From Candidatus Enterousia sp. (GTDB taxonomy: Bacteria > Pseudomonadota > Alphaproteobacteria > Rs-D84), in contig JAZOTB010000002.1 in assembly GCA_045657405.1 (NCBI GenBank), positions 32,523 through 96,522 on the forward strand: 64,000 bases of DNA, in the 5' to 3' direction. Position 1 is the stretch's first letter. Each line of letters starts with the position of its first letter. Below the pieces are notes generated by a model. It had not been told where the DNA came from, did not search any database, and saw only the letters and a program-made list of their open reading frames with translations. Below are positions 20,663 to 57,814 of the stretch, piece after piece. A program made the translations under genes and the position numbers.

Positions 20663-21541
20663 TTATTTAGATAGTTTTTCAACCAACTCAAACAATTGTG
20701 TACGCGTTGAAAAAAACAATGTTATACTACCTGCCCCACCACGACGTTCCGATAGCTTTGCGGGAACACCCAAAACTTTGGATATTTTCTTTTCAATATC
20801 ACGAACTGTTGCAGCATCAATAGTTTTAGACACGTGTTTTTTTGCACCGGATGCACGTGGCGCAGACTTTACCAATTTATCCGTATCAACAACAGATAAT
20901 TTACCTGCAATAATCTTGTGAGCTAATTCTTCTGGATTTTCGGCAACAGCAATTGTACGCGCATGTGATGCACTTAATTCACCCTGCTCCACTAAATTTT
21001 GTACACTATCTGGCAAAGACGTTAATCGCAACATATTACGAATATAACTTTCTGATTTACCAATCAAACGTGAAACATCTGGCAATTCATAATCACAACA
21101 TTCCATTAGTCTTTTATATGCGCTTGCCTCTTCTATTGGATTAAGGTTTTCACGTTGCACATTTTCAATCAACGCAATTTCCATCGCATTGGTATCATCA
21201 ATCGTTTTAACAAGCGCAGGTATTTCAGACAACCCTGCCATCTTTGATGCACGATAACGACGTTCACCCGCAACGATTTCATACAAAAAAGAACCATTTT
21301 TAACACTTCGCAACAATATCGGCTGTAAAACCCCCTTCTCTTTTATAGAAGCTGCCAAATCCGCCAATTCAGAATCTGTAAAAGTTTTACGTGGCTGATC
21401 CGGATTCGTACCAATCTGGTACAACGGTATTTGCTTTACAACGACACGTTCTGTCGGCGTTAACAAAGAAATATCTGGTATAGTACCACGCGCAGACTGC
21501 AAATCAGCCAACCCACGCCCTAATCCAAATTTATTCGCCAT
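20663..21541 (-). CDS. parB: chromosome partitioning protein ParB
   Basis: ParB box GLGRGL; NPDQPRK; EIVAGERRYRASKMAGL; HTH region. Confidence 0.9.
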   Translation of the reverse strand: MANKFGLGRGLADLQSARGTIPDISLLTPTERVVVKQIPLYQIGTNPDQPRKTFTDSELADLAASIKEKGVLQPILLRSVKNGSFLYEIVAGERRYRASKMAGLSEIPALVKTIDDTNAMEIALIENVQRENLNPIEEASAYKRLMECCDYELPDVSRLIGKSESYIRNMLRLTSLPDSVQNLVEQGELSASHARTIAVAENPEELAHKIIAGKLSVVDTDKLVKSAPRASGAKKHVSKTIDAATVRDIEKKISKVLGVPAKLSERRGGAGSITLFFSTRTQLFELVEKLSK

Positions 21542-22313
21542 CTATACCTCCTTCGGTTCTTTGAACAAGTTCTGTTGCAACACGTAAATAAGCCTGTGCA
21601 CCACTGGAATTAAAATCATAAAATAATGCCGGCTTTCCATGACTTGGCGCCTCAGACACACGAACATTACGTGGCACCACAGTTTTGAACACTTTGTCAC
21701 CAAACACAGAACGCACATCATCATCAACAGCACGTGTCACGTTATATCTACGCTCGTACATAGTTAATAAAACACCCAAGATATCTAAACCAGGATTCCA
21801 TTTTTCTTTAACAATAGAAATAGTATCTGTTAATTGTTGAACACCCTCTAGAGCAAAAAACTCACACTGCAACGGAATAACAACACTGTCCGCAGCAGCA
21901 AGAGCGTTTATTGTCAAATACCCCAACGCAGGTGGACAATCTAATAAAACATAATCATAATAATCATCAACCTGTAACAACGCATCACGCAGACGATATT
22001 CACGATTATCCATATCTAACAAATCAATATCTGCACCCGCTAGCGCCTGAGAAGATGGCAACAAATGCAAATTAGGAACCGCAGTAGTCAATATATTATC
22101 CGTGATATTAGCACTACCCATAATAACACCATACGCACTTTGACGATGCGAAGCACGAACAAAGCCAAGCCCTGTGCCCGCATTACCCTGAGGATCTAAA
22201 TCAACCAACAAAACCCGTCTTTTAATTGTAGCCAAAGACGCACCTATATTAATTGCGGTTGTTGTCTTGCCAACACCGCCTTTTTGATTCGCAAACGCAA
22301 TTACTTTTGCCAT
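21531..22313 (-). CDS. parA: chromosome partitioning ATPase ParA (Soj)
   Basis: Deviant Walker A NQKGGVGKTTTAINI; LLVDLDPQGNA; overlaps parB by 11 nt. Confidence 0.9.
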   Translation of the reverse strand: MAKVIAFANQKGGVGKTTTAINIGASLATIKRRVLLVDLDPQGNAGTGLGFVRASHRQSAYGVIMGSANITDNILTTAVPNLHLLPSSQALAGADIDLLDMDNREYRLRDALLQVDDYYDYVLLDCPPALGYLTINALAAADSVVIPLQCEFFALEGVQQLTDTISIVKEKWNPGLDILGVLLTMYERRYNVTRAVDDDVRSVFGDKVFKTVVPRNVRVSEAPSHGKPALFYDFNSSGAQAYLRVATELVQRTEGGIDGE

Positions 22314-22406
22314 TTCCCTTTCCTATTATTAACAATAACAAATATATAAAATCCAAATGATTCGGTCAAGAATTAAAAAACACAATAAAAACAAAACATT
22401 ATTATA

Positions 22407-22422
22407 TATTTCACACGAAATA
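22407..22422. promoter_or_regulatory. parS-like site 1 (TATTTCACACGAAATA)
   Basis: 12/16 match to the canonical TGTTTCACGTGAAACA. Its outer arms TATTTC/GAAATA are palindromic. It sits about 95 bp upstream of parA. Confidence 0.4.
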
Positions 22423-22514
22423 AGACTAAAATCAACAACTAACAAAAACCGGCTTTTACCGGCTTTTTACAACATATACAAACAAAAACAAACAAATAAC
22501 AACAAGTTAACAAA

Positions 22515-22530
22515 TATTTCACATGAAATT
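22515..22530. promoter_or_regulatory. parS-like site 2 (TATTTCACATGAAATT)
   Basis: Core TTTCAC-ATGAAA has one mismatch to the canonical parS core. It shares ATATTTCACA(C/T)GAAAT with site 1 and abuts the rsmG stop codon. Confidence 0.45.
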
Positions 22531-22531
22531 A

Positions 22532-23089
22532 TCACTTAAAACGAACAGCAATTATAAAACCATCACCAGTTTTTGACGGAATCAAATCATATTCAAAACA
22601 ATATTTCTTTTTTGCCTCTGAAACTTCAGCTTCTATTTCCCGGCCTTTTAATAAAAAAAGCCGGTATTTTGTATGTGCAACATAATCCATTATCTTTGTC
22701 AACGACGCAAACGCACGTGCAGTAAAGACATATTTATCGCTTTTTACCGGTAAATGCCGGACAAAATCTTCTACGCGACCATGATAAATCGTCAAATTAC
22801 CCAAGTTTAATTTTTCTTTTACCGCCGATAAAAACGCCACTTTTTTACCAATAGATTCTATACAAGTGACACGCCAACCAAGTATTGCCAAAACAACACC
22901 CGGAAAACCGGCACCACTACCCAAATCTATAATTTCTGCATCTGCAGGCAAAACATCTGCCAACTGTGCCGAATCAGCAATATGACGATTTTGTATATCA
23001 TTTAGTGTGCTGGGCGCAACAAGATTCATACGTTGTGACCACTGACGCAATAAATTTTCATACTCTTGAAATTTGACATTATTATTCAT
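22532..23089 (-). CDS. rsmG: 16S rRNA (guanine527-N7)-methyltransferase
   Basis: RsmG/GidB pattern: HI.DS..L, SAM motif IDLGSGAGFPG, ARA.A.L. Confidence 0.85.
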   Translation of the reverse strand: MNNNVKFQEYENLLRQWSQRMNLVAPSTLNDIQNRHIADSAQLADVLPADAEIIDLGSGAGFPGVVLAILGWRVTCIESIGKKVAFLSAVKEKLNLGNLTIYHGRVEDFVRHLPVKSDKYVFTARAFASLTKIMDYVAHTKYRLFLLKGREIEAEVSEAKKKYCFEYDLIPSKTGDGFIIAVRFK

Positions 23090-23110: not shown

Positions 23111-24730
23111 ATGAGAAAAATTGAACGTTTATTTATTACAACAAGTCTGTTTGCTGTTTTGGCTGTAACAGGTGCGACTGTATGGAAATATACGCACCAA
23201 GAAAACACAAACAAAACATTAACCAGTACACCATCAAATAAATTTGGTGACTTTTTGGCTGCGCAACACGCAATATATGTAAATGATTTTGAAACTGCAA
23301 TCAACCTGACACAGTCATTAAAAGATACGCAGTACACAATTGTTCACAATACTAAAATAATGTCTGAATTTTTAAGTGGCCGCATCCCAACAGATGCAAA
23401 ACTATTAAAAAACGAAAAAACGCTGCCTGCACAATTTATTTATGACGCATATTTGCTACATAATAACAACTGGAAGGAATTGCACAACAGACACAAAACA
23501 GATGAAAGCGCACTGATTTCACCATTTAGAATATGGTCTGCAATTGCAAATGATTGGCGTACAAACACATTTAAGTTTATTGAAAAACTGCCAACAAACG
23601 AATCTTGGCGCGCATTTATACGCGGTCAAATTTATGCAGAAAACGGGCAATTTGATGATGCTGCAAAGCATTTTGAACAGGTAACACCTGATTTTATGAA
23701 CATTAATGATTATTTGTATTTAATGTCTTTTTATACGCATCACGACATGCAAGACAAAGCAGATACATTAAAACAAAAATTCACATCCAAACCATCAGGA
23801 ATGTTTCTAATCGGATACGATAATATACCCGATTGGTCTGTGTATTCCGGATACAAAAATGCACTTGCTTTCAGTTTATTGCAAAATGTATCCCACACAC
23901 AAATATTGATGTATTCTGATTTGGCAATGCTGATGTTACGTTTTGCACAAATAACAGCACCTGATTTTGCAAAAAACATTGATGCCATAGACTATTATTT
24001 AGGTCAATTCTTTTACACAAACATCGGTGATTATCAGAAGCATTTTGATAAAATAGAACCAAAAAGCCCTTTCTATCCATTTGTTGCGCTGCGAAACGCA
24101 GAAAAAACTAACGATATCGCAAAATTAGAATCATCTTTGAAAGAACATCCAATGTTTGTACCTGCGATTAATAAAATTGTTGGTCATCACATAAAAAATG
24201 GCAACAAGCGCGATGCACTGCGAACAATTAACAACGCAATGAAACACAAGAGCTTAGATGAATCGAGCAGGGCGTTTTTTGCAAAAATACGCGCACAAAT
24301 TTATTATTCTTTTGGCGATTTTGATGATGCGCAATCTGATATAAAGTTTGCTTCAGACACAATGCCTGTTGACAAAGAAATCTTAGGCCTGCAAGCCAAG
24401 ATATGGGCGGCACAGAACCGAGAAATAGAAAATGCCTATGACTATGCAATGACTTTGGTTGCAAAAAACCCAAGCGATATCGCTGCATGGGATGTACTGG
24501 GGCGTGTCGTTGCTGTACGCGAGGGTGCTGTCGCAGCACTTGAGGTACTGGAACGAGTAGGGGAAGTATCGCAAACACATTCGCCACTATATTTGCATCT
24601 AGGGGACTTGTATATTGAAGTTGGCGAATATGAAAACGCGCGAAAGGCATATATGCGCGCAATTGATTTATCTGATGATGGATTAATAGTTGTCCCTGAA
24701 ATTGAAAGAAAAATAAGGAAATTAAAATGA
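23111..24730 (+). CDS. membrane-anchored TPR/helical-repeat protein, function unknown
   Basis: Start trimmed to MRKIERLFITTSLFAVLAVTGATVW (signal or anchor). The C-terminal half has clear TPR-like repeats (...GDLYIEVGEYENARKAYMRAIDL). Confidence 0.6.
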   Translation: MRKIERLFITTSLFAVLAVTGATVWKYTHQENTNKTLTSTPSNKFGDFLAAQHAIYVNDFETAINLTQSLKDTQYTIVHNTKIMSEFLSGRIPTDAKLLKNEKTLPAQFIYDAYLLHNNNWKELHNRHKTDESALISPFRIWSAIANDWRTNTFKFIEKLPTNESWRAFIRGQIYAENGQFDDAAKHFEQVTPDFMNINDYLYLMSFYTHHDMQDKADTLKQKFTSKPSGMFLIGYDNIPDWSVYSGYKNALAFSLLQNVSHTQILMYSDLAMLMLRFAQITAPDFAKNIDAIDYYLGQFFYTNIGDYQKHFDKIEPKSPFYPFVALRNAEKTNDIAKLESSLKEHPMFVPAINKIVGHHIKNGNKRDALRTINNAMKHKSLDESSRAFFAKIRAQIYYSFGDFDDAQSDIKFASDTMPVDKEILGLQAKIWAAQNREIENAYDYAMTLVAKNPSDIAAWDVLGRVVAVREGAVAALEVLERVGEVSQTHSPLYLHLGDLYIEVGEYENARKAYMRAIDLSDDGLIVVPEIERKIRKLK

Positions 24731-25590
24731 AAGTAGCCGTTATTGGAGCTGGTGCATGGGGTACCGCACTGGCAATTACTGCGTCACGTGGTGGCACAGA
24801 AACAATATTGTGGTCTTATGATGGTCAATACAAAAAATTTGAAAACGTTGAAAAGCCACAAAATTTATATATTACAAAAAATATAGCAGAAACCAAAGAA
24901 ACCGACGCTTGGCTGATTGTAACACCTTCTGCTTTTTTTCGTGAGACACTAAAAAAAGCACGCGAATTTTATAATGGACAACCAGTTATAATATGCACAA
25001 AAGGTGCAGAATGTTCAACAGGACAGTTTATGTCTGAAATTCTGCAAGACGTATTACCAGAATGTTATGACTTTGGCGTATTATCTGGACCTCAGTTCGC
25101 AGCAGAGGTTGCACAAGGGGTTCCAACTGGTTCAACATTGGCAGGAACACGCAATGCGGTTGTAGCAGGCCAGCAAATACTAAACAAACTGTATCTAGAA
25201 GTAATCTCTGACGTCATAGGAACAGAAATTTGTGGCGTTGGCAAAAATGCGGCCGCACTGATTAGTGGTTATAACTCTGTTATGACACGCGGCGAAAATG
25301 AACGCGCCCTGTTGTTTACACGCGTGTGGAACGACATTGTAAATATAGGTATCGCATCTGGCGCAAATACCGCCACATTTCTAGGTCTTTGCGGCCTTGG
25401 TGATTTATATCTATCTGCAACCAGCCCAACCAGTAGAAATTATTCTGGCGGCATAGCAATCGCAAAAGGACAACCACCAGAAGGAACAGTAGAAGGAATT
25501 CACGCTTTGTGCGGTTTGATAGAACGCGCAAAATCACTTGGGGTTGATGTTCCTATACTGATTGAAATGAAAGAAAAACTAAAAATATAA
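24727..25590 (+). CDS. gpsA: NAD(P)H-dependent glycerol-3-phosphate dehydrogenase
   Basis: MKVAVIGAGAWGTALA Rossmann start; ICTKG; GPQFA.EVA; GLGDL.LT/SATS motif. Short form, 287 aa. Confidence 0.85.
   Translation: MKVAVIGAGAWGTALAITASRGGTETILWSYDGQYKKFENVEKPQNLYITKNIAETKETDAWLIVTPSAFFRETLKKAREFYNGQPVIICTKGAECSTGQFMSEILQDVLPECYDFGVLSGPQFAAEVAQGVPTGSTLAGTRNAVVAGQQILNKLYLEVISDVIGTEICGVGKNAAALISGYNSVMTRGENERALLFTRVWNDIVNIGIASGANTATFLGLCGLGDLYLSATSPTSRNYSGGIAIAKGQPPEGTVEGIHALCGLIERAKSLGVDVPILIEMKEKLKI

Positions 25591-25624: not shown

Positions 25625-25627
<3 letters not shown>
25597..25627. terminator. bidirectional intrinsic terminator (GCCGGT-aaat-ACCGGC)
   Basis: A7, 6-bp GC stem, T7. The core is identical to the terminator at 53955..53985. 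Confidence 0.8.
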
Positions 25628-26677
<1,050 letters not shown>

Positions 26678-27414: not shown

Positions 27415-27849
27415 ATGTCTTTTCGTGCAACCGTTGAATCTATGTCTAAGATCATGGATGATATGGGGATTACAGAACTGAATTTAGAGCGTCAGTTTTT
27501 ATTTGGTGTATATCGCAAACATATTCATTTATCAAAACAACAGGTTGCAACAACAGTGGCTGTTGCACAATCTGATACAAAACAAGAAAAAACAATTCAA
27601 CAAAACCAAATAAGTGGTCATGCTTTGAAATCACCAATGGTTGGTGTCGTATATTTGGCACCAGAACCAGGCGCAGACACATTTGTTTCTGTTGGCAGTG
27701 CTGTTAAAGTCGGTGACACAGTTGCGCTGGTAGAAGCAATGAAAACATTCAACCCTATCAAATCTGACAAAGATGGCGTTGTCAAAGAAATCTTGGTAAA
27801 AGATGGGGCTGCCGTTGAATTTGACCAATCTTTAGTTGTTATTGAATAA
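27415..27849 (+). CDS. accB: acetyl-CoA carboxylase biotin carboxyl carrier protein
   Basis: C-terminal biotinyl domain with the biotinyl-Lys motif VEAMKTFN.I. 2-nt gap to accC. Confidence 0.85.
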
Positions 27850-27851
27850 TT

Positions 27852-29198
27852 ATGTCACAAATAAAAAAAGTTTTAATTGCAAATCGTGGTGAAATTGCAC
27901 TGCGTGTAATACGTGCATGTCGTGATATGGGCATTCGTACGGTTGCAGTATATTCAACTGCAGACAAAGATGCAATGCATGTTCAATTGGCAGACGAATC
28001 TGTATGTATTGGACCTGCATCCGTAAAAGATTCTTATTTGAATGAATCTGCAATTTTGACGGCTGCATTGCTAACAAATTCTGATGCAATTCATCCAGGA
28101 TATGGCTTTTTATCAGAACGCGCAGACTTTGCACACAAAGTTGAGCAACATGGAATGATTTGGATTGGTCCAAAACCAGAAATGATTTCTAAAATGGGCG
28201 ACAAGGTAAATGCAAAGAAAACTGCTATTGAATGCGGCCTGCCTGTTGTTCCTGGGTCTGACGGCGAATTAAAATCACTAGAAGACGCATTGGATACAGC
28301 AGAAAAAATTGGTTATCCTGTTATGTTAAAAGCGTCTGCAGGTGGTGGTGGACGTGGCATGCGTCCAGTAATGTCAGCAAAAGACATGGAAGAAGCATAT
28401 CAAATTACCAAAAACGAAGCAAAATCCTCATTTGGCGATGATACCTTGTACATGGAAAAATTATTGCTGCACCCAAGACATATTGAATTCCAAGTCCTGG
28501 GCGACATGTATGGTAATGTTGTAATATTTGGTGAACGTGACTGTTCGTTACAAAGACGAAATCAAAAAGTTATGGAAGAATGTCCAGCCGCTGCATTATC
28601 ACAAAAACAACGTGATGATATGATTGAAATCTGTAAATCAGCAGCAAAAAAGATGGGATATACCAATGCCGGAACTTTTGAATTTATGTTTGAAGATGGC
28701 AAGTTTTATTTCTTGGAAATGAATACTCGTTTACAAGTAGAACACCCTGTTACAGAAATGGTTTATGGGGTTGACTTGGTACGCGAACAAATTCGTGTTG
28801 CATCTGGCGAAAAGTTAGGATACACACAATCAAACGTTATTCCAAACGGACATGCAATTGAATTTCGTATAAATGCAGAAGATGCTGAAACATTTATACC
28901 AAATCCTGGAAAAATTACTTTATATGCGCCATCTGGTGGACTGGGGGTACGCGTTGACAGTGCTGTTTATACAGGATATACAATTCCACCAACATATGAT
29001 TCAATGATTGCAAAACTGATTGTTCATGCACAAAATAGACCGGCATGCATCATGCGCGCAACACGTGCATTGGATGAATTTGTCATAGAAGGTGTTAAAA
29101 CAACTATTCCTTTGCAAAAAAAACTGTTGGCAAACAAAGATGTGAAACAGTTAAAATTTGACAATCATTGGTTAGAAGAATTTCTAAAAAAGGATTAA
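27852..29198 (+). CDS. accC: acetyl-CoA carboxylase biotin carboxylase subunit
   Basis: [18 protein letters not shown]; [18 protein letters not shown]; [14 protein letters not shown]. Confidence 0.95.
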
Positions 29199-42608: not shown

Positions 42609-43484
42609 ATGTCATCTATATTTGTATTCCCAGGTCAAGGTGCGCAAAGCGTTGGCATGGGCAAAGAATTATACGATAATAACGCAGATGCACGTGCAGT
42701 ATTTGATGAAGTTGATGCAGCACTGGGTGAAAAATTATCAGATATTATTTTCAATGGCCCAATGGAAGAATTGACACTGACTGCGAATGTTCAGCCAGCA
42801 ATTATGGCTACATCAATCGCAATGTTACGCGCCAGTGGTGTACAATTACCAGAATATGTCGCTGGACATAGTCTTGGTGAATATACCGCTTTATGCGCAG
42901 CGGGCGCATTATCTGTTGGCGATACCGCAAAACTGTTGCGTACACGTGGCAATGCAATGCAAAGCGCAGTACCTGTTGGCCATGGTTTGACCGCTGTTAT
43001 TTTGGGAATGGAAATTGATGCATTGCGTAAAATTTGTGATGATGCAGGCTGTGATGTTGCAAATGATAACAGTGCAGGTCAGGTTGTAATTTCTGGTGCC
43101 AAAGATGCTGTAGAAACTGCAATGACAATGGCCAAAGAACAAGGGGCAAAACGTGCAATGCCTTTGGCACTGTCTGTACCTGTACATTGTCGTATCCAAC
43201 AACCGGCGGCAGATGCGATGATGATCGCACTAGAAAATGTTGAAATAAACAAACCATCCGTACCATTGATTTCAAACAAAACATGCCAGCCTTTGATAGA
43301 TGTTAAGGAAATCAAAGATGCGCTTGTTTATCAAATGACGCATAGTGTTCGCTGGCGCGAAAGTGTTTTGAATATGGCAGAATTAGGGATTACAGATATG
43401 ATAGAAATTGGCCCAGGTTCTGTTTTAACGGGTCTATGTTCACGTATTACAGATAAAATAACCGCTAAGAAATTGGAGATATAA
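42609..43484 (+). CDS. fabD: malonyl CoA-ACP transacylase
   Basis: FPGQGAQ..GMG; active-site GHSLGEY; 291 aa. Confidence 0.9.
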   Translation: MSSIFVFPGQGAQSVGMGKELYDNNADARAVFDEVDAALGEKLSDIIFNGPMEELTLTANVQPAIMATSIAMLRASGVQLPEYVAGHSLGEYTALCAAGALSVGDTAKLLRTRGNAMQSAVPVGHGLTAVILGMEIDALRKICDDAGCDVANDNSAGQVVISGAKDAVETAMTMAKEQGAKRAMPLALSVPVHCRIQQPAADAMMIALENVEINKPSVPLISNKTCQPLIDVKEIKDALVYQMTHSVRWRESVLNMAELGITDMIEIGPGSVLTGLCSRITDKITAKKLEI

Positions 43485-43485
43485 T

Positions 43486-44214
43486 ATGTTTGATTTAACA
43501 GGACGTGTTGCATTAATCACAGGAGCCACAGGTGGTATCGGTTTACAAATTGCAAAAAAAATGAAACAAGCTGGTGCAACTGTTGTTGTTTCTGGTCGTA
43601 ATATCGCAAAAATGAACGCAGAATTTGATGATGAATACATCAAAATACCTTGCGATTTAGCAACTGGTGGTGGTGCAGAAGAACTGATTATGGAAACAAT
43701 TGAAAAAACCGGCAAGATTGATGTACTAATCAACAACGCAGGTATTACCAAAGACACATTATTAATGCGTATGAGTGACGAACAATTTGAAGATGTTATC
43801 AATACTAATTTGCGTTCTTGTTTCAAAATGTGTCGTGCTGCAATTATGCCTATGATGAAAAACAGATATGGTCGTATTATCAATATGGCATCTATTATCG
43901 GTGTTATCGGCGGTGCAGGTCAGGCAAACTATGCCGCAAGTAAGGGTGGTATGATTGCAATGACTAAATCAATCGCAGCCGAAGTTGCATCACGTGGGAT
44001 AACTGCAAATGCAATCGCACCAGGCTTTATAAAAACACCTATGACAGATGTTTTGCCAGAAGAATTAAAGAAAACTTATTTATCACAAATCCCAGCAGGA
44101 AGATTTGGAGAACCAAAAGATATTGCAAACGCATGTGTTTTCTTGGCCAGTGAAGAGGCATCATATATAAACGGTCAGGTTTTACATATTAACGGTGGTA
44201 TGGGTCGTTTTTAA
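43486..44214 (+). CDS. fabG: 3-oxoacyl-ACP reductase
   Basis: TGATGGIG; NNAGIT; Y..SK catalytic motif (YAASKGG); PGFI.T.M. Confidence 0.9.
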   Translation: MFDLTGRVALITGATGGIGLQIAKKMKQAGATVVVSGRNIAKMNAEFDDEYIKIPCDLATGGGAEELIMETIEKTGKIDVLINNAGITKDTLLMRMSDEQFEDVINTNLRSCFKMCRAAIMPMMKNRYGRIINMASIIGVIGGAGQANYAASKGGMIAMTKSIAAEVASRGITANAIAPGFIKTPMTDVLPEELKKTYLSQIPAGRFGEPKDIANACVFLASEEASYINGQVLHINGGMGRF

Positions 44215-45860
44215 TGCAAAAATTTGATGTTATTGTTATCGGTGGTGGACACGCAGGGGTAGAAGCAGCATCTGCATCTGCACGTCGTGGCGCAAACACT
44301 TTATTATTAACACAAACCATATCTGATTTAGGTGCATTATCTTGTAACCCTAGTATTGGGGGACCTGGTAAATCACAAATGGTTGCAGAAATAACCGCAC
44401 TTGGTGGTGTAATGGGACGCGCTGCAGACAAATCTGGCATTCACTGGCGTACATTAAATGCAACACACGGTGCGGCAACACAGGCTTTACGCGCGCAGAT
44501 TGACCGTGATTTGTATCATAATACAATTGTTGATATTTTATCTGAACAAAAAAATTTGACTGTTATATATGAACCTGTAACAGATTTGGATATAAAAAAT
44601 AAAACTGTAAATAATAAATATTCTGCAAAATCAATTGTTCTGACAACTGGTACTTTTTTGCAAGGCGTTGTAACACGTGGAACAGAAAAAATATCGTCTG
44701 GTCGTCTGCAAGATGATGGTACTTATCAAAATGCAGATAAAAATATTTCAAGTATTTTATCTGAAAATGGTTTCAAAATTTTACGTCTTAAAACAGGTAC
44801 GCCTGCACGAATAAAAAAAGATTCTATTGATTTTTCTGTTTGCGAGATTCAACCTGGTGATAACCCACACGATTGGTTTGCAGATGGTGATAAAAATAAT
44901 AATTATGACAGCGTTTGTTTTATCACACACACGACAGAAAACACACATAATGTTATTCGTGAAAATATAAAAAATGCACCAATGTATAACGGTGATATTG
45001 TTGGTACTGGTCCACGTTATTGCCCAAGTTTAGAAGATAAAGTTATGCGTTTTCCAGAACACACTTCACATCATGTGTTCTTGGAACCCGAAGGTTATAA
45101 CAGCGATTTAATTTATCCAAATGGAATATCTACTAGTTTTGGCAAAGCAGAACAAGATAAATGGATTCGTACAATTCCAGGACTTGAAAACGCACAAATT
45201 GAAAGATATGGATACGCAATTGAATATGATGCAATTGATGCGCGTGCACTGAACGATAAATTACAATCCAAAGATATTCCACACATGTTCTTTGCAGGAC
45301 AAATAAATGGTACATCTGGATACGAAGAAGCGGCCGCCCAAGGTTTGGTCGCGGGCAGCAATGCCGCAGCATATGCATTAGATAAAGAACCATTAATTTT
45401 AGACAGAACAAACGCAATGATTGGCGTATTAATTGATGATATAACAACACTTGGGGTTGATGAACCATACCGTATGTTTACATCACGTTCTGAATATAGA
45501 TTATCATTGCGTTGCGATAACGCAATTGCACGCCTTGGTAAAATTGGTATTGATTTAGGATTAATAACAAATACATGGTATGAAAAAATATTCAACATCA
45601 AAAAAGATATTATTGCAGAAAATGATAAATTCTATGCAGGATACATTGCACGTAACGAACGTGAGATTGCTGCATATAAACGTGATGCAAATTTGAAAAT
45701 ACCAACAAATTTCAAATATGACAATTTACCAGGGTTAACAAACGAACTAATAGAAAAACTTAATTCAACACGTCCTGAAAACATTGCAGATTTATCACGT
45801 ATATCTGGCATGACTCCTGCGGGAATAATGGTTATTCTAAGAAAGATAAAAAACAATTAA
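44214..45860 (+). CDS. mnmG: tRNA uridine 5-carboxymethylaminomethyl modification enzyme MnmG (short, 548 aa)
   Basis: FDVIVIGGGHAGVEAA; SCNPSIGG; GPRYCPSLEDK; C-terminal ISG.TPA. The start overlaps the fabG stop (TAATG). Confidence 0.9.
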   Translation: MQKFDVIVIGGGHAGVEAASASARRGANTLLLTQTISDLGALSCNPSIGGPGKSQMVAEITALGGVMGRAADKSGIHWRTLNATHGAATQALRAQIDRDLYHNTIVDILSEQKNLTVIYEPVTDLDIKNKTVNNKYSAKSIVLTTGTFLQGVVTRGTEKISSGRLQDDGTYQNADKNISSILSENGFKILRLKTGTPARIKKDSIDFSVCEIQPGDNPHDWFADGDKNNNYDSVCFITHTTENTHNVIRENIKNAPMYNGDIVGTGPRYCPSLEDKVMRFPEHTSHHVFLEPEGYNSDLIYPNGISTSFGKAEQDKWIRTIPGLENAQIERYGYAIEYDAIDARALNDKLQSKDIPHMFFAGQINGTSGYEEAAAQGLVAGSNAAAYALDKEPLILDRTNAMIGVLIDDITTLGVDEPYRMFTSRSEYRLSLRCDNAIARLGKIGIDLGLITNTWYEKIFNIKKDIIAENDKFYAGYIARNEREIAAYKRDANLKIPTNFKYDNLPGLTNELIEKLNSTRPENIADLSRISGMTPAGIMVILRKIKNN

Positions 45861-45889
45861 AAAAACCGGCTTTTGCCGGTTTTTTTTAT
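45859..45889. terminator. bidirectional intrinsic terminator (ACCGGC-tttt-GCCGGT)
   Basis: A7, 6-bp stem, T8. Confidence 0.8.
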
Positions 45890-47658
45890 TCTTTTTTTAA
45901 CAAACTTTGTACCGCTAATGGAAAATCGGGTGCATTTGCTAAATAAGAACCAGACACCAACATATTAGCACCCGCATCCCAACATAATTGAGCGTTTTTA
46001 TCATTTATTCCACCATCAACAGATATTACAAATTTCAAACCGTATTTCTTGCGGGTGGCTGCCAGCACAGATATTTTATGTAAACACGATGGTTCAAAAG
46101 ATTGGCCTGCTGCACCTGGGTGTACAGACATAATCATAACTTCGTCTATATCACGTAATACACTTTTTAACAACGATACAGATGATTCTGGATTTAACGC
46201 AATACCAACACGTTTACCAGATGCACGTATAGTTCTTATTGCTGCACGTAGGCCAGATGTATTTGTTGACAATATAATCGTATCAGCACCAGCAGATATC
46301 GCATCTGCAGCCCAAACATTTGGACTTTCTGTCATCAAGTGTACATGTAAATGAGCATTTGTTCTGCTGCGTATTTGGCGTAATTCCTCAATACTGCCTG
46401 CAATTTTATCAACATAAAAACCATCCATGATATCTACATGAATCATTGATATCCCACCAGAATAAAACAAACTATATGTTTCGGGTCTTGACATATCAAA
46501 ACATAATGTACTTGGCAAAATCGGAATAAATTGTGGGCGTTTTGTCGTCTTTTTATGAAATATGCCGCGTATTTTATTTAATCTTTGATTCCATCTTTCG
46601 CGTTTTGCAATATATTTTTCACGATGCGTAGATTCTTCGGACCAAATAAATTCAGATAAACCACGAACTGTTGCATCAATAGACATTAATTCTGTTGTTG
46701 TTGCAAAAGCGTTTTCAATAAAATCACGTAAGCCTGTTATTTCTGCCCCACCACCCGTTAATATAATTTTCGTTGGTTTATATTTTGTAAAATGTGAAAA
46801 ACAACTGTCTTTGATTTTTCCTATGATGTCGGCCAGCATTGGTAATACAACCTCGTTAATATCCGATCTGGAAAAATCATACGCTGTGTCCGCAGGTGTA
46901 AAGCGGTCCATCTGAGTTGGAACTAACGATGAAACAGAAACTTTTATTCTGTCTGCATCTTCCATACTTAAACCAAATTTTTCTGATATAGAACGTGTTA
47001 TATCGGTTCCACCAAGTGCAATTTTTGTATGCCATACCGGTCCACGATCTGTCCAAATTGACGCACTGGTATATTCTGCGCCAAAATCTATAAACATTGT
47101 TGTCTGTTTACGAGTACGATAAACAAAATTTTGAATAAACTGAGGGTCATAAAATCCAATTGGCTGAATACAGGCTTGACGTAAATAATCATAAATTTTA
47201 TCAACACCAGAATACGAATAATATATTACACCAAACGCAGAAATTAACCGTTTATCAACATATCCAATTGGCGATACAACATTACGCGCCATCAATGTAT
47301 CATAACGTAATGGTACGATATGCATTGGGAAAAAACCATCTTCTGATGATATCTGTGATATCTGATTATGAATATCAGAAGAACTAATTTTATGTTCCCC
47401 AGACCAAGCGGTACTTTTTGCCATCATTTCAAAATTAGACGGACCAAGATTACCTGTAATATATGCAGAATCAAAATGTCTGCCCAATTGTTTTTCAAGT
47501 TCATCAACCACTGAATTTACTGCAAAAACAGTATCCGAACTGTCCACTGCAAAAAAAGCAGATTTTTCAATATTTGCACTGCGTACTCGATGCGCAATTC
47601 CACGCACACCATGTGTACCTATATCCAGACACAAAAAAGAAGAATCTAATAAATTCAT
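45886..47658 (-). CDS. ftsA: FtsA-like cell division protein fused in frame to ribulose-phosphate 3-epimerase
   Basis: Residues 1 to about 380: LCLDIGTHGVRG, ILTGGGAEITGLRDFIENAF, then an amphipathic RWNQRLNKIRGIFHKK like the FtsA membrane tail. Residues about 385 to 590: IPILPSTLCFD...IHVDIMDG...HVHLM...MSVHPGAAGQ...SVDGGI, a complete Rpe TIM barrel. No stop codon lies between the two parts. Confidence 0.8.
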   Translation of the reverse strand: MNLLDSSFLCLDIGTHGVRGIAHRVRSANIEKSAFFAVDSSDTVFAVNSVVDELEKQLGRHFDSAYITGNLGPSNFEMMAKSTAWSGEHKISSSDIHNQISQISSEDGFFPMHIVPLRYDTLMARNVVSPIGYVDKRLISAFGVIYYSYSGVDKIYDYLRQACIQPIGFYDPQFIQNFVYRTRKQTTMFIDFGAEYTSASIWTDRGPVWHTKIALGGTDITRSISEKFGLSMEDADRIKVSVSSLVPTQMDRFTPADTAYDFSRSDINEVVLPMLADIIGKIKDSCFSHFTKYKPTKIILTGGGAEITGLRDFIENAFATTTELMSIDATVRGLSEFIWSEESTHREKYIAKRERWNQRLNKIRGIFHKKTTKRPQFIPILPSTLCFDMSRPETYSLFYSGGISMIHVDIMDGFYVDKIAGSIEELRQIRSRTNAHLHVHLMTESPNVWAADAISAGADTIILSTNTSGLRAAIRTIRASGKRVGIALNPESSVSLLKSVLRDIDEVMIMSVHPGAAGQSFEPSCLHKISVLAATRKKYGLKFVISVDGGINDKNAQLCWDAGANMLVSGSYLANAPDFPLAVQSLLKKE

Positions 47659-47664
47659 TTCGTT

Positions 47665-48345
47665 TTATTTTACCAATATACGTGCAGAATCACGCATATC
47701 TATAACATCAATATCTTTGTCCAAGATACCATGGTTTTTGTTTAATGTTATTAATGTTGCAATCGCAGATACCGGGTCTTGTTCTGGCAACATGATTATC
47801 AAACCATCGTTTGTATAAATGTTCCAACGACGATTTTCAATCCATTCCATATAGTCAAGATAACCAACTAAATTATGCGCAGCATTTGTTATTTCTGCAA
47901 TATCGTTTGGTAATTCGCCACGAAAAACAACATGCGATTCATCGCGAACATCTGTTGGTTTATTAACAATTGTGCCGTCTGCTGATAACGGGAAAAAACT
48001 TTGACCATCTGTCCACAATGCAACGGCACGATATAATGATACTTTTACAGAAATATTACCATTTGGCATACGACGGACAGCAGCCTTTTTTATTCCAGGC
48101 ACCTTTAACGCACGATTTTTCAACATGTCTAAATTAACAGAATATGCATTTGTATTTGGTGCAAGTGTGACAATAGAAACCAACGAAGATAAATCTGCAT
48201 CTGTTTTGTCTGCGGATATAGATATATTATGCACCTTGGCTACAGGACCATACCCCATGCTGGACATCGCAATACGTACACAGAAATATATTGCAAATAT
48301 AATTGCAACGACAAAAGACACCCAAAACCAAATTGACTTTTTCAT
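47665..48345 (-). CDS. ftsQ: cell division protein FtsQ
   Basis: N-terminal TM helix, then a POTRA-like region (V..I.I........L.....) and the FtsQ beta domain. Sits directly upstream of ftsA. Confidence 0.75.
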   Translation of the reverse strand: MKKSIWFWVSFVVAIIFAIYFCVRIAMSSMGYGPVAKVHNISISADKTDADLSSLVSIVTLAPNTNAYSVNLDMLKNRALKVPGIKKAAVRRMPNGNISVKVSLYRAVALWTDGQSFFPLSADGTIVNKPTDVRDESHVVFRGELPNDIAEITNAAHNLVGYLDYMEWIENRRWNIYTNDGLIIMLPEQDPVSAIATLITLNKNHGILDKDIDVIDMRDSARILVK

Positions 48346-48423: not shown

Positions 48424-50607
48424 TTAATTGTTACTTTCTGGCTTTGTCCAATTACGTATATTCCAGTTTTCATCAGAACCTTTGACATCTGTCATATCAA
48501 CACCCATTGCATTACGCAAGCAATATTCACGTAACTGTACAGATGATGATGCCTTGGTTACATTTGAATCTGTCTGATATTCTGGTTCAAACTTAGACAA
48601 ATCGCCTGTGTATGCACCATTCAAGATTTCATTTAATGTAACAATATTGCGACATGTATTTGTCTTGTAATCTTGAGTATTTTTGCAAGATTCACTGTCT
48701 TGTTCATTAATAACAGCCAAGAATTGTGCATCGCTTGGTGTACAAATCATTTCTTCATAGCAGTGTGGAACGTTTGCCATTTGTGCACAATATGTCTTTA
48801 TACGTGCTGTTGGCCATGTTGGTTCACTGTCTGCTGTTTCTGTATAACAGTCATATATTTCTGTTAAACATTCATTAAAGTTAGACATAGCAGATTGTGC
48901 AGCCGTCAAAATTTGTTCTTTTTCTTCATTTGCAAATTCTAAACGTTTCTGACGTAATGCCTGTTGTGCAGCAACTTTTTGATAACCAATATTTTGTGCA
49001 GCAACACGCAACTGTTCGCCATAAAGATCACAGTCTGCATTTGCATCCAACAAATATTTATTTATGATGCTGCGACGTGCATCAGCAACCGGTCCACGCA
49101 AACTTGAATAAGGATCGCCAGAACTGGTTGTATAACCAAAGCACGCGGCACTGCTGTTAACAGTAGATGTTGTACCACGTTCATTTAATGTAATATTACC
49201 ATCTGAACTGACTTCTACATTAGAGTTATAGTTAAAAGGACAATTTGAAGATTGACCTGTGGCACATTTACCACCAAATGATGCAGGTGAACCACATGCT
49301 TCGTAAATTCCATTAAAACAAGAATCCAGAACACGAGAACATACATTATCGTGTGCATATTCAAATAAATCATATCCCCATGTTGTTGCCAATGTATCTG
49401 CAGATGCATCTGTAGTGTTAAACGCACCACCAATACCAGCCAAATTACCAACAACATTTGAAACATTCTCAAAAGCAGATAAAACATTATCATTATTTTC
49501 TGTCAAAATAGTGATTGTATTATCTTTTGCATCTGCCCATGCTTGTAATGATGCCAAGATGTCAGAACCACTACCATCAATATTTGCAACATCAAATCCA
49601 AAATTATTTCCAGTTGATTTACAATAAGATGGTTGTGGACATGTTTCTGCGCTTTCATAAATACCATGACTGTTGCACCATTGTTTTGCTTCGTCAGATG
49701 TCCAAGAACCTTCTTTGTATGCTTCCTTCCAAGAAACACAATTCATAACCTTTTCTGCATCGGTTAATTTAAAGGCATCAGAAACATCTTTACCTTTGTT
49801 TGCAACCAACAATGCCAATTCACCGGAAACCTTTATCAATTCTTCATTTGCTGTTTCCAATGATGCTTCTGCATCTGCAAATGCCTTGACACGTCCAGCA
49901 CATGCACAACGACGTTGTGCAGCATTACGTGCAGTACAAATTTCATCCATACATGTATAGTAAGATTCCAAACAGTTGCTGTACGCATCGGCTGATATCA
50001 TACCAGTAGAAGAATCAATAATATTTGAATAATTACCTGTGTATAATTTTGTATTCAAATATGAATATGTAGATGTTGATGTAGCCTTGGAACCACGAAT
50101 TGCGCTGCCTTGCAAAGAAATACGTGCATTATTTGCAGCATCTGTTGTCGCAGTTCTAGAACGAACTGTACGTGTACGTGTTGCAGTTGCACGATTTGCA
50201 TTAGTGTTTTGACGTGATACAACATTACGTGTTGCGCCAGCACCGGTGTTACGAGATGTCACAGCATTAGAACGTGGATTAACCGCACTGCGCGATACAA
50301 CATTACGTTTTGCAACATTGCGTATAGGCTGAAGAGAAGATGCAACACTGCGAACTGTGCTACGTGCAACATTTGTACGCTGTGCAGTTTGTTTGTTTCG
50401 TGGGCTGGCACGACCGGTTGTACGTGCATTATTACCAGCACGTTGTGCCTGTGGACCAACGAACATTTCTTCGTCAACAGGTGCAATTGGATCAGCCAAT
50501 ACGGCACGCATTGATAAAAATGTTGAACATACAAAAAACGCACCCGCCAACAAGAAAACTGTACTTACAGCATTCTTTAATGATTCTGCGACTGTTTTGG
50601 TTTTCAT
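48424..50607 (-). CDS. secreted protein with an Arg/Asn/Ser/Thr-rich repeat region and a large Cys-rich domain (727 aa), function unknown
   Basis: Start trimmed to MKTKTVAESLKNAVSTVFLLAGAFFVCSTFLSMRAVLA (signal peptide) with a GGGAGAAG SD. Repeats of the RNVVSR / RS.V.S type follow. The C-terminal ~540 aa contain 24 Cys by my count plus coiled-coil-like stretches. Confidence 0.6.
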   Translation of the reverse strand: MKTKTVAESLKNAVSTVFLLAGAFFVCSTFLSMRAVLADPIAPVDEEMFVGPQAQRAGNNARTTGRASPRNKQTAQRTNVARSTVRSVASSLQPIRNVAKRNVVSRSAVNPRSNAVTSRNTGAGATRNVVSRQNTNANRATATRTRTVRSRTATTDAANNARISLQGSAIRGSKATSTSTYSYLNTKLYTGNYSNIIDSSTGMISADAYSNCLESYYTCMDEICTARNAAQRRCACAGRVKAFADAEASLETANEELIKVSGELALLVANKGKDVSDAFKLTDAEKVMNCVSWKEAYKEGSWTSDEAKQWCNSHGIYESAETCPQPSYCKSTGNNFGFDVANIDGSGSDILASLQAWADAKDNTITILTENNDNVLSAFENVSNVVGNLAGIGGAFNTTDASADTLATTWGYDLFEYAHDNVCSRVLDSCFNGIYEACGSPASFGGKCATGQSSNCPFNYNSNVEVSSDGNITLNERGTTSTVNSSAACFGYTTSSGDPYSSLRGPVADARRSIINKYLLDANADCDLYGEQLRVAAQNIGYQKVAAQQALRQKRLEFANEEKEQILTAAQSAMSNFNECLTEIYDCYTETADSEPTWPTARIKTYCAQMANVPHCYEEMICTPSDAQFLAVINEQDSESCKNTQDYKTNTCRNIVTLNEILNGAYTGDLSKFEPEYQTDSNVTKASSSVQLREYCLRNAMGVDMTDVKGSDENWNIRNWTKPESNN

Positions 50608-50712
50608 AAAACTTCTCCCTGTGTTCTGAGATTCCCCAGAATTCCAACCTTTTAACGCATTATGTACAACATAATACATTCTTAATATATTTGATTATAA
50701 CAATTTTTTATC

Positions 50713-53225: not shown

Positions 53226-53957
53226 ATGATGGTAAAAAAATTAGTAGAAACCAGAATTCTACAAGCGTATCAATGCGATAGATTTGGTTATGTTCGTCCG
53301 TTAATTTTAATGAACGAACTTCAATCTATTGCGGACCGACATGCTGAGATTTTAGGTTGCGGACGAACTTATTGCTTAAAAAACAATATCGGCTGGGTTG
53401 TAATGTACTATCTTGTTGATATTGTTGAATTACCACAAGAAGGCGAAGAACTTACCTTTACTACATGGCCATCATGTCAAGATGCACTGCGTGCAACACG
53501 TGATTTTGAAATTCGCGGTGCAGATGGCAGATTAATGGTACGCGCAACTTCACAGTGGATTTTAATTGATATGACGCATCGCAGACCATTACCGCTGGCA
53601 AACCACTTGTCACCAGACGTTGTAACACCAATACGTTCATACAATTGTGCGTTTGAAAAATTCCCGGATTTTGAAACAAACAAAACCCATATCATGAAAT
53701 GTCGTTTTGATGACATTGATGTTAATCAACATATAAACAATGCTGTTTATGCAGTATGGGCAACAGAAAGTGTCGGATACACATATCGCACACAACATAA
53801 ATTAAAAAAGATTAATATACAATTCAAAAAAGAAGTTAACCCTGATACACCAGAAATTCAAATTGATGTTGCAATTGATGGACTGGTATCACGTCATAAA
53901 ATAAAATCAGGTGATACCGAAAATGCGATTGTAATCTGTCATTGGGAAAAAATATAA
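53226..53957 (+). CDS. acyl-ACP thioesterase
   Basis: Double hot-dog pattern: ...D..G.......L...Q..A..H...LG......L......WV..........P..GE.L....W. The second half carries DID.N.H.NN..Y. Abuts the valS stop. Confidence 0.75.
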   Translation: MMVKKLVETRILQAYQCDRFGYVRPLILMNELQSIADRHAEILGCGRTYCLKNNIGWVVMYYLVDIVELPQEGEELTFTTWPSCQDALRATRDFEIRGADGRLMVRATSQWILIDMTHRRPLPLANHLSPDVVTPIRSYNCAFEKFPDFETNKTHIMKCRFDDIDVNQHINNAVYAVWATESVGYTYRTQHKLKKINIQFKKEVNPDTPEIQIDVAIDGLVSRHKIKSGDTENAIVICHWEKI

Positions 53958-56602: not shown

Positions 56603-56676
56603 GGCCTGGTGGCAGAGTGGTTATGCAGAGGACTGCAAATCCTTCTATGCCGGTTCGATTCCGACCCAGGCCTCCA
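56603..56676 (+). tRNA. tRNA-Cys (anticodon GCA), CCA encoded
   Basis: Acceptor GGCCTGG/CCAGGCC, anticodon loop CT-GCA-AA, T-arm CCGGTTCGATTCCGA. Confidence 0.85.
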
Positions 56677-56683
56677 AAATAAA

Positions 56684-56711
56684 AAACACCTCTTGCGGGT
56701 GTTTTTTTTTA
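56684..56711 (+). terminator. intrinsic terminator after tRNA-Cys
   Basis: ACACCT-cttgc-GGGTGT followed by T9. Confidence 0.7.
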
Positions 56712-56715
56712 TGTG

Positions 56716-56721
56716 TATGAT
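56716..56721 (+). promoter_or_regulatory. -10-like hexamer TATGAT, 7 nt upstream of the recF ATG
   Basis: TG TATGAT atttgtc ATG. No SD. Sits immediately after the tRNA terminator. Confidence 0.35.
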
Positions 56722-56728
56722 ATTTGTC

Positions 56729-57814
56729 ATGATAAAAATATTAAACCTTACTAATTTTAGAAATCATGAAACATGTCGTATCAACACATACGACAAACAT
56801 AATATTATTATCACAGGGCCAAATGGGGCAGGTAAAACTGCAATACTTGAAGCAATATCTATGTTATCTGGCGAACGTGGTATGCGTGGGGCAACAATGC
56901 CTGATATTTCACGATTTAATGGCGATGGTGGATTCAGTGTATTCGCAACAACAAATTGTGATACTGATGTCTGTGTTTATTTTTCTGCATCTGATGCAAA
57001 TCGTCGTGCAAAAATTGATAACGAAAACGCAAATTTATCCGAATTAGCAAAGCATTTAAGAATAATTTGGATTACACCAAAAGAAGACAGATTATTTATA
57101 GATAGTGCATCTGATAGACGGGCTTTTTTTGATAGATTAACAGCCAGTTTTGATTATTCACATGCCGGCAGATGTGCAAAATTATCTAAGTTATTATCAG
57201 AACGCGCATATGCATTAAAATCAAACGCAGATAAACATTGGTTAGATGCACTGGATACACAAATAGTAGGAACATCTGTTGCAATTTCTGTAGCACGAAT
57301 ACAATATGCTGGCGAATTAAATTACTTTTTAGAACGATGCGCTGTATCTGTTTCTGGAATAATTGAACAAATGTTGATTGATGGAATATCGCCAAGCGAT
57401 ATAGAAAGAAAGTATATGGAATACCTGCGCGAAAATCGTACATTAGTCGGCGACAAAATGATTTTAGATGGACCACACAAATCTGACTTTGGCGTTTTTA
57501 ACAAAGAACTAAATTTACCAGCCAGATTAACAAGTACAGGTCAACAAAAAACTGTGTTGATTGATTTGATACTAGCACACTCAAAACTAGTTTTTACAAA
57601 AACAGGTAAACAGATGTTAATTTTATTGGACGAAGCCGCAGCACATCTGGATGAAAATGCACGTAATAAAATGTTTTTTGAACTAAATAATACAAATGCT
57701 CAAGTCTGGGCCACAGGACTAGACATGGAAATATTCAAAAATATTCCTGATGCAGTATTTGTTTCTTGCCAGAATGGGCATATAAGTAATATAGTATTGT
57801 CGGAGATAAAATAA
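56729..57814 (+). CDS. recF: DNA replication and repair protein RecF
   Basis: Start trimmed to MIKILNLTNFRNH, because the track ORF extends over tRNA-Cys. Walker A GPNGAGKTAILEAI; signature-like SGQQK; Walker B LILLDE. Confidence 0.85.
   Translation: MIKILNLTNFRNHETCRINTYDKHNIIITGPNGAGKTAILEAISMLSGERGMRGATMPDISRFNGDGGFSVFATTNCDTDVCVYFSASDANRRAKIDNENANLSELAKHLRIIWITPKEDRLFIDSASDRRAFFDRLTASFDYSHAGRCAKLSKLLSERAYALKSNADKHWLDALDTQIVGTSVAISVARIQYAGELNYFLERCAVSVSGIIEQMLIDGISPSDIERKYMEYLRENRTLVGDKMILDGPHKSDFGVFNKELNLPARLTSTGQQKTVLIDLILAHSKLVFTKTGKQMLILLDEAAAHLDENARNKMFFELNNTNAQVWATGLDMEIFKNIPDAVFVSCQNGHISNIVLSEIK

Follow-up and report, generated by a model that had tools for sequence, protein, structure and literature searches.

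A clade-wide in-frame fusion of a divergent FtsA-like protein with ribulose-phosphate 3-epimerase in Candidatus Enterousia and related Rs-D84 bacteria

The window analysed here is a stretch of 64,000 nucleotides from Candidatus Enterousia sp. (Alphaproteobacteria, GTDB order Rs-D84; assembly GCA_045657405.1, contig JAZOTB010000002.1, positions 32,523–96,522). Its minus strand carries an open reading frame (ORF; 45886..47658, 590 amino acids plus a stop codon, ATG start) in which an FtsA-like domain is joined in frame to a complete ribulose-phosphate 3-epimerase (Rpe) domain. The gene immediately upstream on the same strand is ftsQ (47665..48345), identified by a Pfam FtsQ_DivIB_C match (41 bits against a cut-off of 21, E 3e-10) accompanied by a weak POTRA_1 match. 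The boundary sequence places the ftsQ stop codon 6 nt before the fusion ATG; the two genes lie in the same operon, with the fusion gene last. The next gene downstream is mnmG on the opposite strand, in convergent orientation, and a bidirectional intrinsic terminator (45859..45886, both strands; 12-bp stem flanked on either side by A and T tracts) lies between the two. An earlier note on this DNA, made from the sequence alone, had reported an ORF of 590 residues directly downstream of ftsQ, which is borne out by the ORF call and the FtsQ_DivIB_C match. The same note had stated that no ftsZ follows and that mnmG comes next on the other strand; this holds in the window. For ftsZ it holds as well in the 56 complete related loci described below, whose flanks were covered out to ±10 kb, and across 80 loci in total. 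A tblastn search with E. coli FtsZ found no credible ftsZ in the window, the weak matches falling in ileS and accC, and neither a second ftsA-like gene nor a second rpe is present in the 64 kb. All of the motifs quoted in the note (DIGT, ILTGGGAEITGL, RWNQRLNKIRGIFHKK, IPILPSTLCFD, HVDIMDG, VHLM, MSVHPGAAGQ and VDGG) occur in the protein.

The fusion is a real, ancient and clade-wide single ORF that is tightly linked to ftsQ. A search across 5.8 billion protein sequences gave 790 hits, the best 120 of which are all 584–598 residues long, 70–100% identical to the window protein and contain both Pfam domains. A further search added ∼95 clusters of the same length and architecture, giving a total of more than 200 clusters (584–599 residues). 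A scan of one genome per GTDB species, with a profile that reaches only the Enterousia-like part of the family, yielded 58 fusion loci, of which 56 are complete, one is cut at residue 526 by a contig end and one comprises the Rpe end only. In each of the 56 complete loci both halves are encoded in one ATG-started, stop-free ORF of 589–598 residues. The gene adjoining the fusion upstream is ftsQ in all 56, as it is in the distant relatives L082–L087, and the ftsQ stop and fusion start codons often overlap among the genomes. The loci are recorded under the names Candidatus Enterousia, ‘Alphaproteobacteria bacterium’ or ‘Rickettsiales bacterium’, and the samples were taken from humans, cattle, sheep, goats, yaks, deer, buffalo, horses, chickens, rabbits and termites. 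The claim in the note of an in-frame fusion between an FtsA-type protein and a complete Rpe is upheld by the single frame in these species-level loci and clusters and by the support for both domains.

The family extends well beyond the reach of the genome scan. An exhaustive HMMER search with the N-terminal 372 residues against 1.84 billion cluster representatives gave best full-length matches of ∼540–623 residues with identities down to ∼25%, and FtsAs of canonical length (390–440 residues) start only at 66 bits, with 22–27% identity. The three-part architecture is common to ∼20 clusters at the 50% identity level, in which the N-terminal half diverges to 25% identity, and the distant members have the same genomic setting, with ftsQ upstream and lpxC/lpxK, virB4 and genes for MacB/FtsX ABC transporters in the vicinity. 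Among the clusters and the 56 complete loci, the fusion was never seen split or unfused. Since the long homologues share the architecture and no unfused form was seen, the divergent FtsA-like subfamily appears to be coextensive with the fusion and, judged from these comparisons, the fusion has been fixed since the ancestor of the Rs-D84/Candidatus Enterousia group. One representative of 487 residues (P0121) is 55% identical to the window protein up to residue ∼450 and then continues into an unrelated C-terminus (…PVRIRLYCLQTHPDCAPR…), which looks like a frameshift error in one assembly and not a natural truncation.

The N-terminal domain (residues 1–341; 46636..47658, minus strand) is a divergent FtsA-like actin-fold domain, as judged by Pfam, by profile comparison with the PDB and by Foldseek. 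Pfam FtsA (PF14450) matches with 41.7 bits, above its gathering score of 31.8, and Pfam PilM_2 scores about equally. The FtsA equivalog model TIGR01174 matches residues 38–338 with 64.3 bits against a cut-off of 175.85, the PRK09472 FtsA model reaches 19.9 bits against a cut-off of 409, and Pfam SHS2_FTSA gives no match to the window protein and a weak one to the relative P0143. We use the label ‘divergent FtsA-like’ because the TIGR01174 score lies far under the equivalog cut-off. A profile of the N-terminal half identifies FtsA in the PDB with an E value of 2e-27 over residues 10–324, compared with 8e-14 for PilM and 2e-11 for MreB, both of which match only the C-terminal half of the domain. 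In Foldseek, FtsA structures from five species superimpose with template modeling (TM) scores of 0.67–0.76 (most 0.70–0.76) over ∼375–390 columns, compared with a TM score of 0.57 for PilM. The FtsA hallmarks that had been noted in the first ∼380 residues are therefore supported by the Pfam match, the PDB profile and the fold, but the match is far below the TIGR01174 cut-off and the domain itself comprises residues 1–341.

The nucleotide-binding motifs are only partly conventional. The phosphate-1 motif DIGT occupies residues 12–15 (with the aspartate at D12), the phosphate-2 motif is represented by D191, G193 and T197 in a D-x-G-x-x-x-T arrangement that is found family-wide, and the adenosine motif ILTGGGAEITGL occupies residues 299–310, with its GGG at G302–G304. 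The phosphate-2 loop lacks the glycine-rich GGG turn, and its threonine is offset by one position relative to V. maritimus FtsA; the same alignment includes FtsA/PilM-type relatives whose DxGAETT it resembles. This loop had been called degenerate; the missing GGG agrees with that description, but D191, G193 and T197 are conserved across the family, so the degeneracy is partial. The window protein and Enterousia have D12, D191, G193, T197 and G302–G304, and six positions (G69, D95, H113, P116, D171 and G302) are invariant in 18 divergent fusions. The phosphate-1 and phosphate-2 aspartates are gone in the deep branches P0143, P0144, P0147 and P0134.

We compared the domain with canonical FtsA (TIGR01174/PRK09472; 1E4F and 4A2A from T. 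maritima, 3WQT from S. aureus, 7Q6D from E. coli and 7Q6F from V. maritimus). The two share the actin/Hsp70 fold, with a full-length alignment that includes the region of the FtsA-specific 1C subdomain, the phosphate-1 DIGT, the adenosine GGG, a gene position directly after ftsQ and a basic amphipathic helix following the core. The fusion differs in its low sequence identity (22–27%), in a core that is ∼30–40 residues shorter, in a phosphate-2 motif of D-x-G-x-x-x-T instead of DIGGGT, in having the helix internal and not C-terminal, followed by an enzyme domain of 210 residues, and in the absence of ftsZ next door. PilM (PF11104; 2YCH and 5EOU) belongs to the same superfamily and resembles the domain in its DxGAETT-like phosphate-2 motif and in a PilM_2 score close to that of Pfam FtsA. 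In contrast to PilM, the fusion is linked to ftsQ and has no pilN-, pilO-, pilP- or pilQ-type genes next to it, either in the window or in the loci of its relatives. A PilM identity of the N-terminal half was rejected on the weaker and partial profile and fold matches. An MreB identity was likewise rejected, as the profile match is confined to the C-terminal half and a canonical mreB is encoded separately at 25625–26674 (mreC is also in the window). We infer that the N-terminal domain is the Rs-D84 lineage’s own FtsA.

An AlphaFold model of the whole protein, built with an alignment of the 18 divergent fusions, has a mean predicted local distance difference test (pLDDT) score of 90.8 and a predicted TM (pTM) score of 0.62. 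Both folds expected from the note are recovered in this one model, which consists of the actin-like domain (residues 1–341), a helix (343–367), a disordered segment (368–374) and a TIM barrel from residue 380. The connection between the domains is composed of two elements, a long helix whose C-terminal part is cationic and amphipathic (residues 343–367; 46558..46632, minus strand), which is defined by the AlphaFold model and by conservation, and a polybasic disordered connector (HKKTTKRPQFIP, residues 368–379; 46522..46557, minus strand) with pLDDT below 50 at residues 368–374. The junction had been placed at ∼46480..46560; it does lie within that range, which is now narrowed to ∼46522–46557. 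The amphipathic stretch RWNQRLNKIRGIFHKK spans residues 355–370. Among 57 species the hydrophobic face of the helix is conserved (Y349 in 100%, W356 in 92%, I363 in 98%, I366 in 87% and F367 in 100%), as are the basic positions 352, 355 and 362 (70–98%), and the helix is followed by a K/R-rich tail and then by the invariant F-I-P-I-x-P-S that opens the barrel. The most basic 30-residue segment of the protein is centered at residues 358–378 in all 57 species and carries a net charge of +8 to +12, compared with an average of +5.3 for the most basic stretch outside the linker.

The linker helix is likely to be the counterpart of the membrane-targeting helix of FtsA, now in an internal position. 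It would bind in the plane of the membrane, as suggested by its conserved periodicity and charge at the position of the FtsA membrane-targeting helix. The statement in the note that the normally C-terminal helix has become internal agrees with the presence of this conserved cationic amphipathic helix between the two domains, the membrane role itself being a prediction. The hydrophobic moment was also considered as a stand-alone test for a membrane helix and was dropped as it does not discriminate (0.41 for this helix versus up to 0.72 in ordinary helices).

The C-terminal domain is a complete Rpe (β/α)8 barrel (residues 380–590; 45889..46521, minus strand), as established by Pfam, NCBIfam, alignment with 2FLI and Foldseek. 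Pfam Ribul_P_3_epim (PF00834) matches residues 397–573 with an E value of 4e-44 and 150.9 bits against a threshold of 21.1, so that this model and PF14450 are both above threshold in the one protein. The NCBIfam Rpe subfamily model NF004076 scores 179.3 bits (cut-off 165), and the Rpe equivalog TIGR01163 scores 157.5 bits, under its cut-off of 212.6. The S. pyogenes Rpe 2FLI aligns end to end (E 3e-38, residues 7–214 of 220) and superimposes on the modeled domain with a TM score of 0.92 and an r.m.s.d. of 1.4 Å over 211 of 217 residues. The motifs that had been listed are found at residues 378–388 (IPILPSTLCFD), 407–413 (HVDIMDG), 439–442 (VHLM), 510–519 (MSVHPGAAGQ) and 547–550 (VDGG), and the positions of interest are S383, H407, D409, M411, H440, M442, M510, the PGAAGQ loop (514–519) and D548-G549-G550. 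The HxD, HLM and VDGG motifs of 2FLI and 1RPX are matched in the alignment by H407, D409, H440 and D548. These four residues correspond to the metal ligands and acid/base groups of Rpe structures, and the three methionine positions are likewise occupied in the window protein. H407, D409, H440, M442 and D548-G549-G550 are invariant across the 18 divergent fusions, and M411 and M510, although found in the window protein, vary in some members.

Relative to stand-alone Rpe (PF00834, TIGR01163; 2FLI, 1RPX, 1TQJ and 3OVP), the domain retains the complete barrel at 34–37% identity, the His/Asp/His/Asp set, the three methionine positions and the PGxxGQ, DGG and GS phosphate-binding loops. It differs in being the C-terminal domain of a 590-residue protein behind a membrane-type helix, in the sequences MDGFYVD[KR], PSTLCFDM and PGAAGQ, in scoring below TIGR01163 and in having two side lineages without catalytic residues. 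The description of this region as a full TIM barrel with its catalytic and metal-binding residues is thus supported by PF00834, NF004076, the superposition on 2FLI and the invariant residues, which point to probable catalytic competence. We infer that the barrel is active in most members, and it is probably the cell’s own Rpe.

Both halves of the fusion are under purifying selection. The ratio of nonsynonymous to synonymous substitution rates (dN/dS, ω) was estimated by the Nei–Gojobori method for the five least-saturated pairs (dS 0.36–1.03) and is 0.04–0.11 for the FtsA half, 0.03–0.08 for the Rpe half and 0.08–0.66 for the linker, which exceeds either domain in most of the closer pairs. In pairwise amino-acid comparisons the Rpe halves are on average 69% identical, the FtsA halves 52% and the linkers 31%.

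The catalytic residues of the Rpe half have been lost in two side lineages. The first, P0131, is a singleton whose closest relatives are 33% identical. The second consists of P0134 and one relative, P0271, with 75% identity between them; the gene has a GC content of 20% and the locus ∼25%. Fusion loci of this second type are located at 10001–11770 in L085 and L086 and at 4001–5773 in L087. P0134 and P0271 lack the Rpe equivalents of H407, D409 and D548 and the PGxxGQ loop and, in the FtsA half, the phosphate-1 aspartate, the phosphate-2 aspartate and glycine and the GGG motif, and they keep a frame of 589–590 residues after ftsQ. Between the two, ω is lower in the Rpe half (0.21) than in the FtsA half (0.37), and the Rpe half is also the better conserved one (80% versus 73%). 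This pattern is suggestive of a barrel that is kept for something other than catalysis, and the P0134/P0271 protein is a candidate for a scaffold that is ‘dead’ in both of its domains.

Taken as a whole, the observations are best explained by an FtsA that carries an internal membrane helix and a tethered Rpe, the barrel of which has probably acquired an added structural role, an account that we hold with little more than even confidence. In this account the N-terminal domain would serve as the FtsA of the lineage, working alongside FtsQ on the inner membrane face. The helix and polybasic stretch (residues ∼349–376) would be the former C-terminal membrane-targeting helix of FtsA, still lying in the membrane plane, and the Rpe barrel would hang from it on a short flexible tether, serving as the cell’s ribulose 5-phosphate/xylulose 5-phosphate epimerase at the membrane. 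The FtsA part would probably also gain structurally from the barrel. As stand-alone enzymes, Rpe proteins form dimers or hexamers, and self-association, which would cluster FtsA on the membrane, is for this reason the most plausible contribution. Among the options listed in the earlier note, a true bifunctional or moonlighting protein is the one favored by the evidence, and the moonlighting idea gains some weight because one lineage keeps a catalytically dead Rpe under constraint.

Several points weigh against this account. The FtsA half scores well short of the FtsA equivalog threshold and, with no ftsZ within 10 kb in any locus, a role in the divisome rests mainly on the linkage to ftsQ and on the fold. 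The hydrophobic moment of the linker helix (Eisenberg; family mean 0.67, window protein 0.41) is not distinctive, as surface helices reach 0.72, so that the case for a membrane helix depends on periodicity and charge. Near the active site the Rpe half has MDGFYVD[KR] for MDGHFVPN and PGAAGQ for PGFGGQ, as well as PSTLCFDM in place of the PSILSADF of stand-alone enzymes; these substitutions, together with the miss in TIGR01163, imply that the substrate specificity could have shifted. The argument for a structural role is drawn from a single sequence pair with an extreme AT bias, the second dead-Rpe lineage, P0131, being a singleton. Rpe activity, membrane binding, oligomerization, FtsZ binding and septal localization are all predictions.

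A neutral ‘Rosetta-stone’ fusion is a tentative possibility that deserves serious consideration. Genome reduction would have deleted the ftsA stop codon and spacer in front of a downstream rpe, leaving two domains that function independently; the fusion would persist since splitting it again needs a rare and precise event, and it would imply no coupling between division and the pentose phosphate pathway. Enterousia belongs to the GTDB order Rs-D84, the genomes of which are strongly reduced (0.75–1.0 Mb; PMC12306168) and gene-dense, which favors such an origin. The joint is flexible and of low confidence, and the modest pTM despite the high pLDDT suggests that there is no fixed interface between the domains. 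The faster evolution of the linker in most of the closer pairs fits as well, as does the retention by each domain of the catalytic motifs of its own family. A neutral passenger should, however, decay or become truncated once its catalytic residues are lost, whereas the dead Rpe of P0134/P0271 is full length, in frame and constrained (ω ∼0.2), and no split form was found among the clusters or the 56 complete loci despite very deep divergence. Because this pair keeps a full-length constrained Rpe without catalytic residues, the fusion does not seem to be purely neutral.

The opposite extreme, in which the barrel is an integral part of the division machinery, either as an oligomerizing module that gathers a weakened FtsA on the membrane or as a sugar-phosphate sensor, seems to us unlikely. 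If true, it would link septation physically to the status of the pentose phosphate pathway, and the barrel could offset an altered or missing FtsZ–FtsA partnership, given that the gene is in no locus linked to ftsZ.

A more doubtful proposal is that the N-terminal domain is a repurposed scaffold of PilM/FtsA type that localizes or regulates Rpe, with division carried out by other proteins. The TIGR01174 score of only 64 bits against 176, the near-equal Pfam scores of PilM_2 and FtsA, the name ‘pilus assembly protein PilM’ given by NCBI to one member, the absence of an adjacent ftsZ (loci within ±10 kb) and the loss of the phosphate-1 and phosphate-2 aspartates in P0143, P0144, P0147 and P0134 are all compatible with it. 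FtsA is nevertheless preferred over PilM both in the profile comparison (2e-27 over the full length versus 8e-14 over the C-terminal half) and in TM score, the gene is linked to ftsQ in every genome, the stop and start codons of the two often overlapping, and pilN/pilO-type neighbors are lacking. Moreover, no FtsA-like protein of normal length came out closer in the representative search with the N-terminal half, where matches of canonical length reach 66 bits at best.

It is very improbable that the fused gene gives rise to two separate proteins by internal initiation or by proteolysis in the basic linker. A disordered segment rich in lysine and arginine is a typical protease-accessible site, but the conserved amphipathic and polybasic character of this linker points to a function of its own. 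The domain junction contains neither a start codon nor a Shine–Dalgarno-like sequence or ribosome-binding site, and the first methionine past it, M389, lies beyond barrel strand β1 and the invariant P382-S383, which makes a separately initiated Rpe unlikely. A search for internal promoters gave one promoter-like match inside the Rpe region, with no more matches than in shuffled sequence. Lastly, the suggestion in the note of an assembly or sequencing artefact, in which a stop codon or frameshift was lost, is refuted, along with that of a decaying pseudogene, by the continuous frame in 56 independently assembled loci and more than 200 clusters, which cannot share one missing stop codon by chance, and by the low ω in the closest pairs (∼0.03–0.11), with nothing in its favor but the garbled C-terminus of P0121, which resembles a local frameshift error.

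Enterousia is reported to lack most biosynthetic pathways and to retain MreB, RodA and MrdA, and is proposed to depend on partner cells; Rs-D84 genomes are reported to retain the genes of the non-oxidative pentose phosphate pathway except that for transaldolase (PMC12306168), in keeping with a competent Rpe. Full-text literature searches found no description of an FtsA–Rpe fusion, nor does that study contain one, in agreement with the earlier note, whose author knew of no described fusion of a divisome actin homolog with a pentose phosphate enzyme. Both domains come from well known families and the novelty is their architecture. In databases the proteins are named ‘ribulose-phosphate 3-epimerase’ and once ‘pilus assembly protein PilM’ (P0323), and never FtsA; with the FtsA half invisible in the names, automated reconstructions may score Rs-D84 genomes as lacking FtsA.

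The bacterial division ring is held to the membrane by FtsA, a conserved anchor whose C-terminal membrane helix counts as one of its defining features. Across an entire order of gut bacteria, uncultured but widespread in humans, livestock, birds and termites, an FtsA-type protein has been kept in which the putative membrane helix is internal and an enzyme of central metabolism occupies the end. If both halves work, the fusion would be a naturally occurring case of an enzyme tethered to the division apparatus; if the barrel is structural, as the dead-Rpe lineage hints, an enzyme fold would have been recruited as a cytoskeletal accessory. The interest for cell-division biology would be higher if the barrel is structural or regulatory or if the conventional FtsZ–FtsA pairing is absent.

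A few other features of the window were recorded. Just upstream of ftsQ is an ORF of 751 residues (48424–50679, minus strand) with no significant match in Pfam or NCBIfam. The N-terminal segment of its product is hydrophobic, a low-complexity region is enriched in Asn, Thr, Arg and Ser, and the long C-terminal part is rich in cysteine; the protein may be secreted or located at the surface. The ORF is kept at 61–78% identity in a few close Enterousia genomes only (L001–L003 and L007), not always beside ftsQ. The mnmG (gidA) gene (44214–45860, plus strand) encodes 548 residues compared with the 616 positions of its model, with the match split into two stretches. In many bacteria mnmG, rsmG, parA and parB are contiguous; here mnmG is ∼21 kb from rsmG(gidB)-parA-parB, which are grouped at 20663–23089 on the minus strand. 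For a gene of SMC_N/RecF type (56609–57814, plus strand), the GTG start of the longest ORF at 56609 falls inside a tRNA-Cys gene (56603–56676); as the Pfam match begins at residue 41, translation probably starts beyond the tRNA.

A gene for a type IV secretion coupling protein of VirD4/TraG type is located at 15430–17670 (plus strand), and in distant relatives virB4 lies no more than 10 kb from the fusion (1786–4212 in L081 and 19486–21716 in L082); genes of these kinds fit the partner-dependent lifestyle that has been proposed for Rs-D84. Rs-D84 has been described as being without lipid biosynthesis (PMC12306168). The window contains fabD, fabG, accC, an acyl-acyl carrier protein thioesterase gene and gpsA (42609–44214, 27415–29198, 53226–53957 and 24727–25590), along with a 144-residue ORF at 27415–27849 that is a probable accB, and the presence of fabD, fabG, accC, the thioesterase gene and gpsA indicates that this genome has kept its fatty-acid and phospholipid metabolism at least in part.

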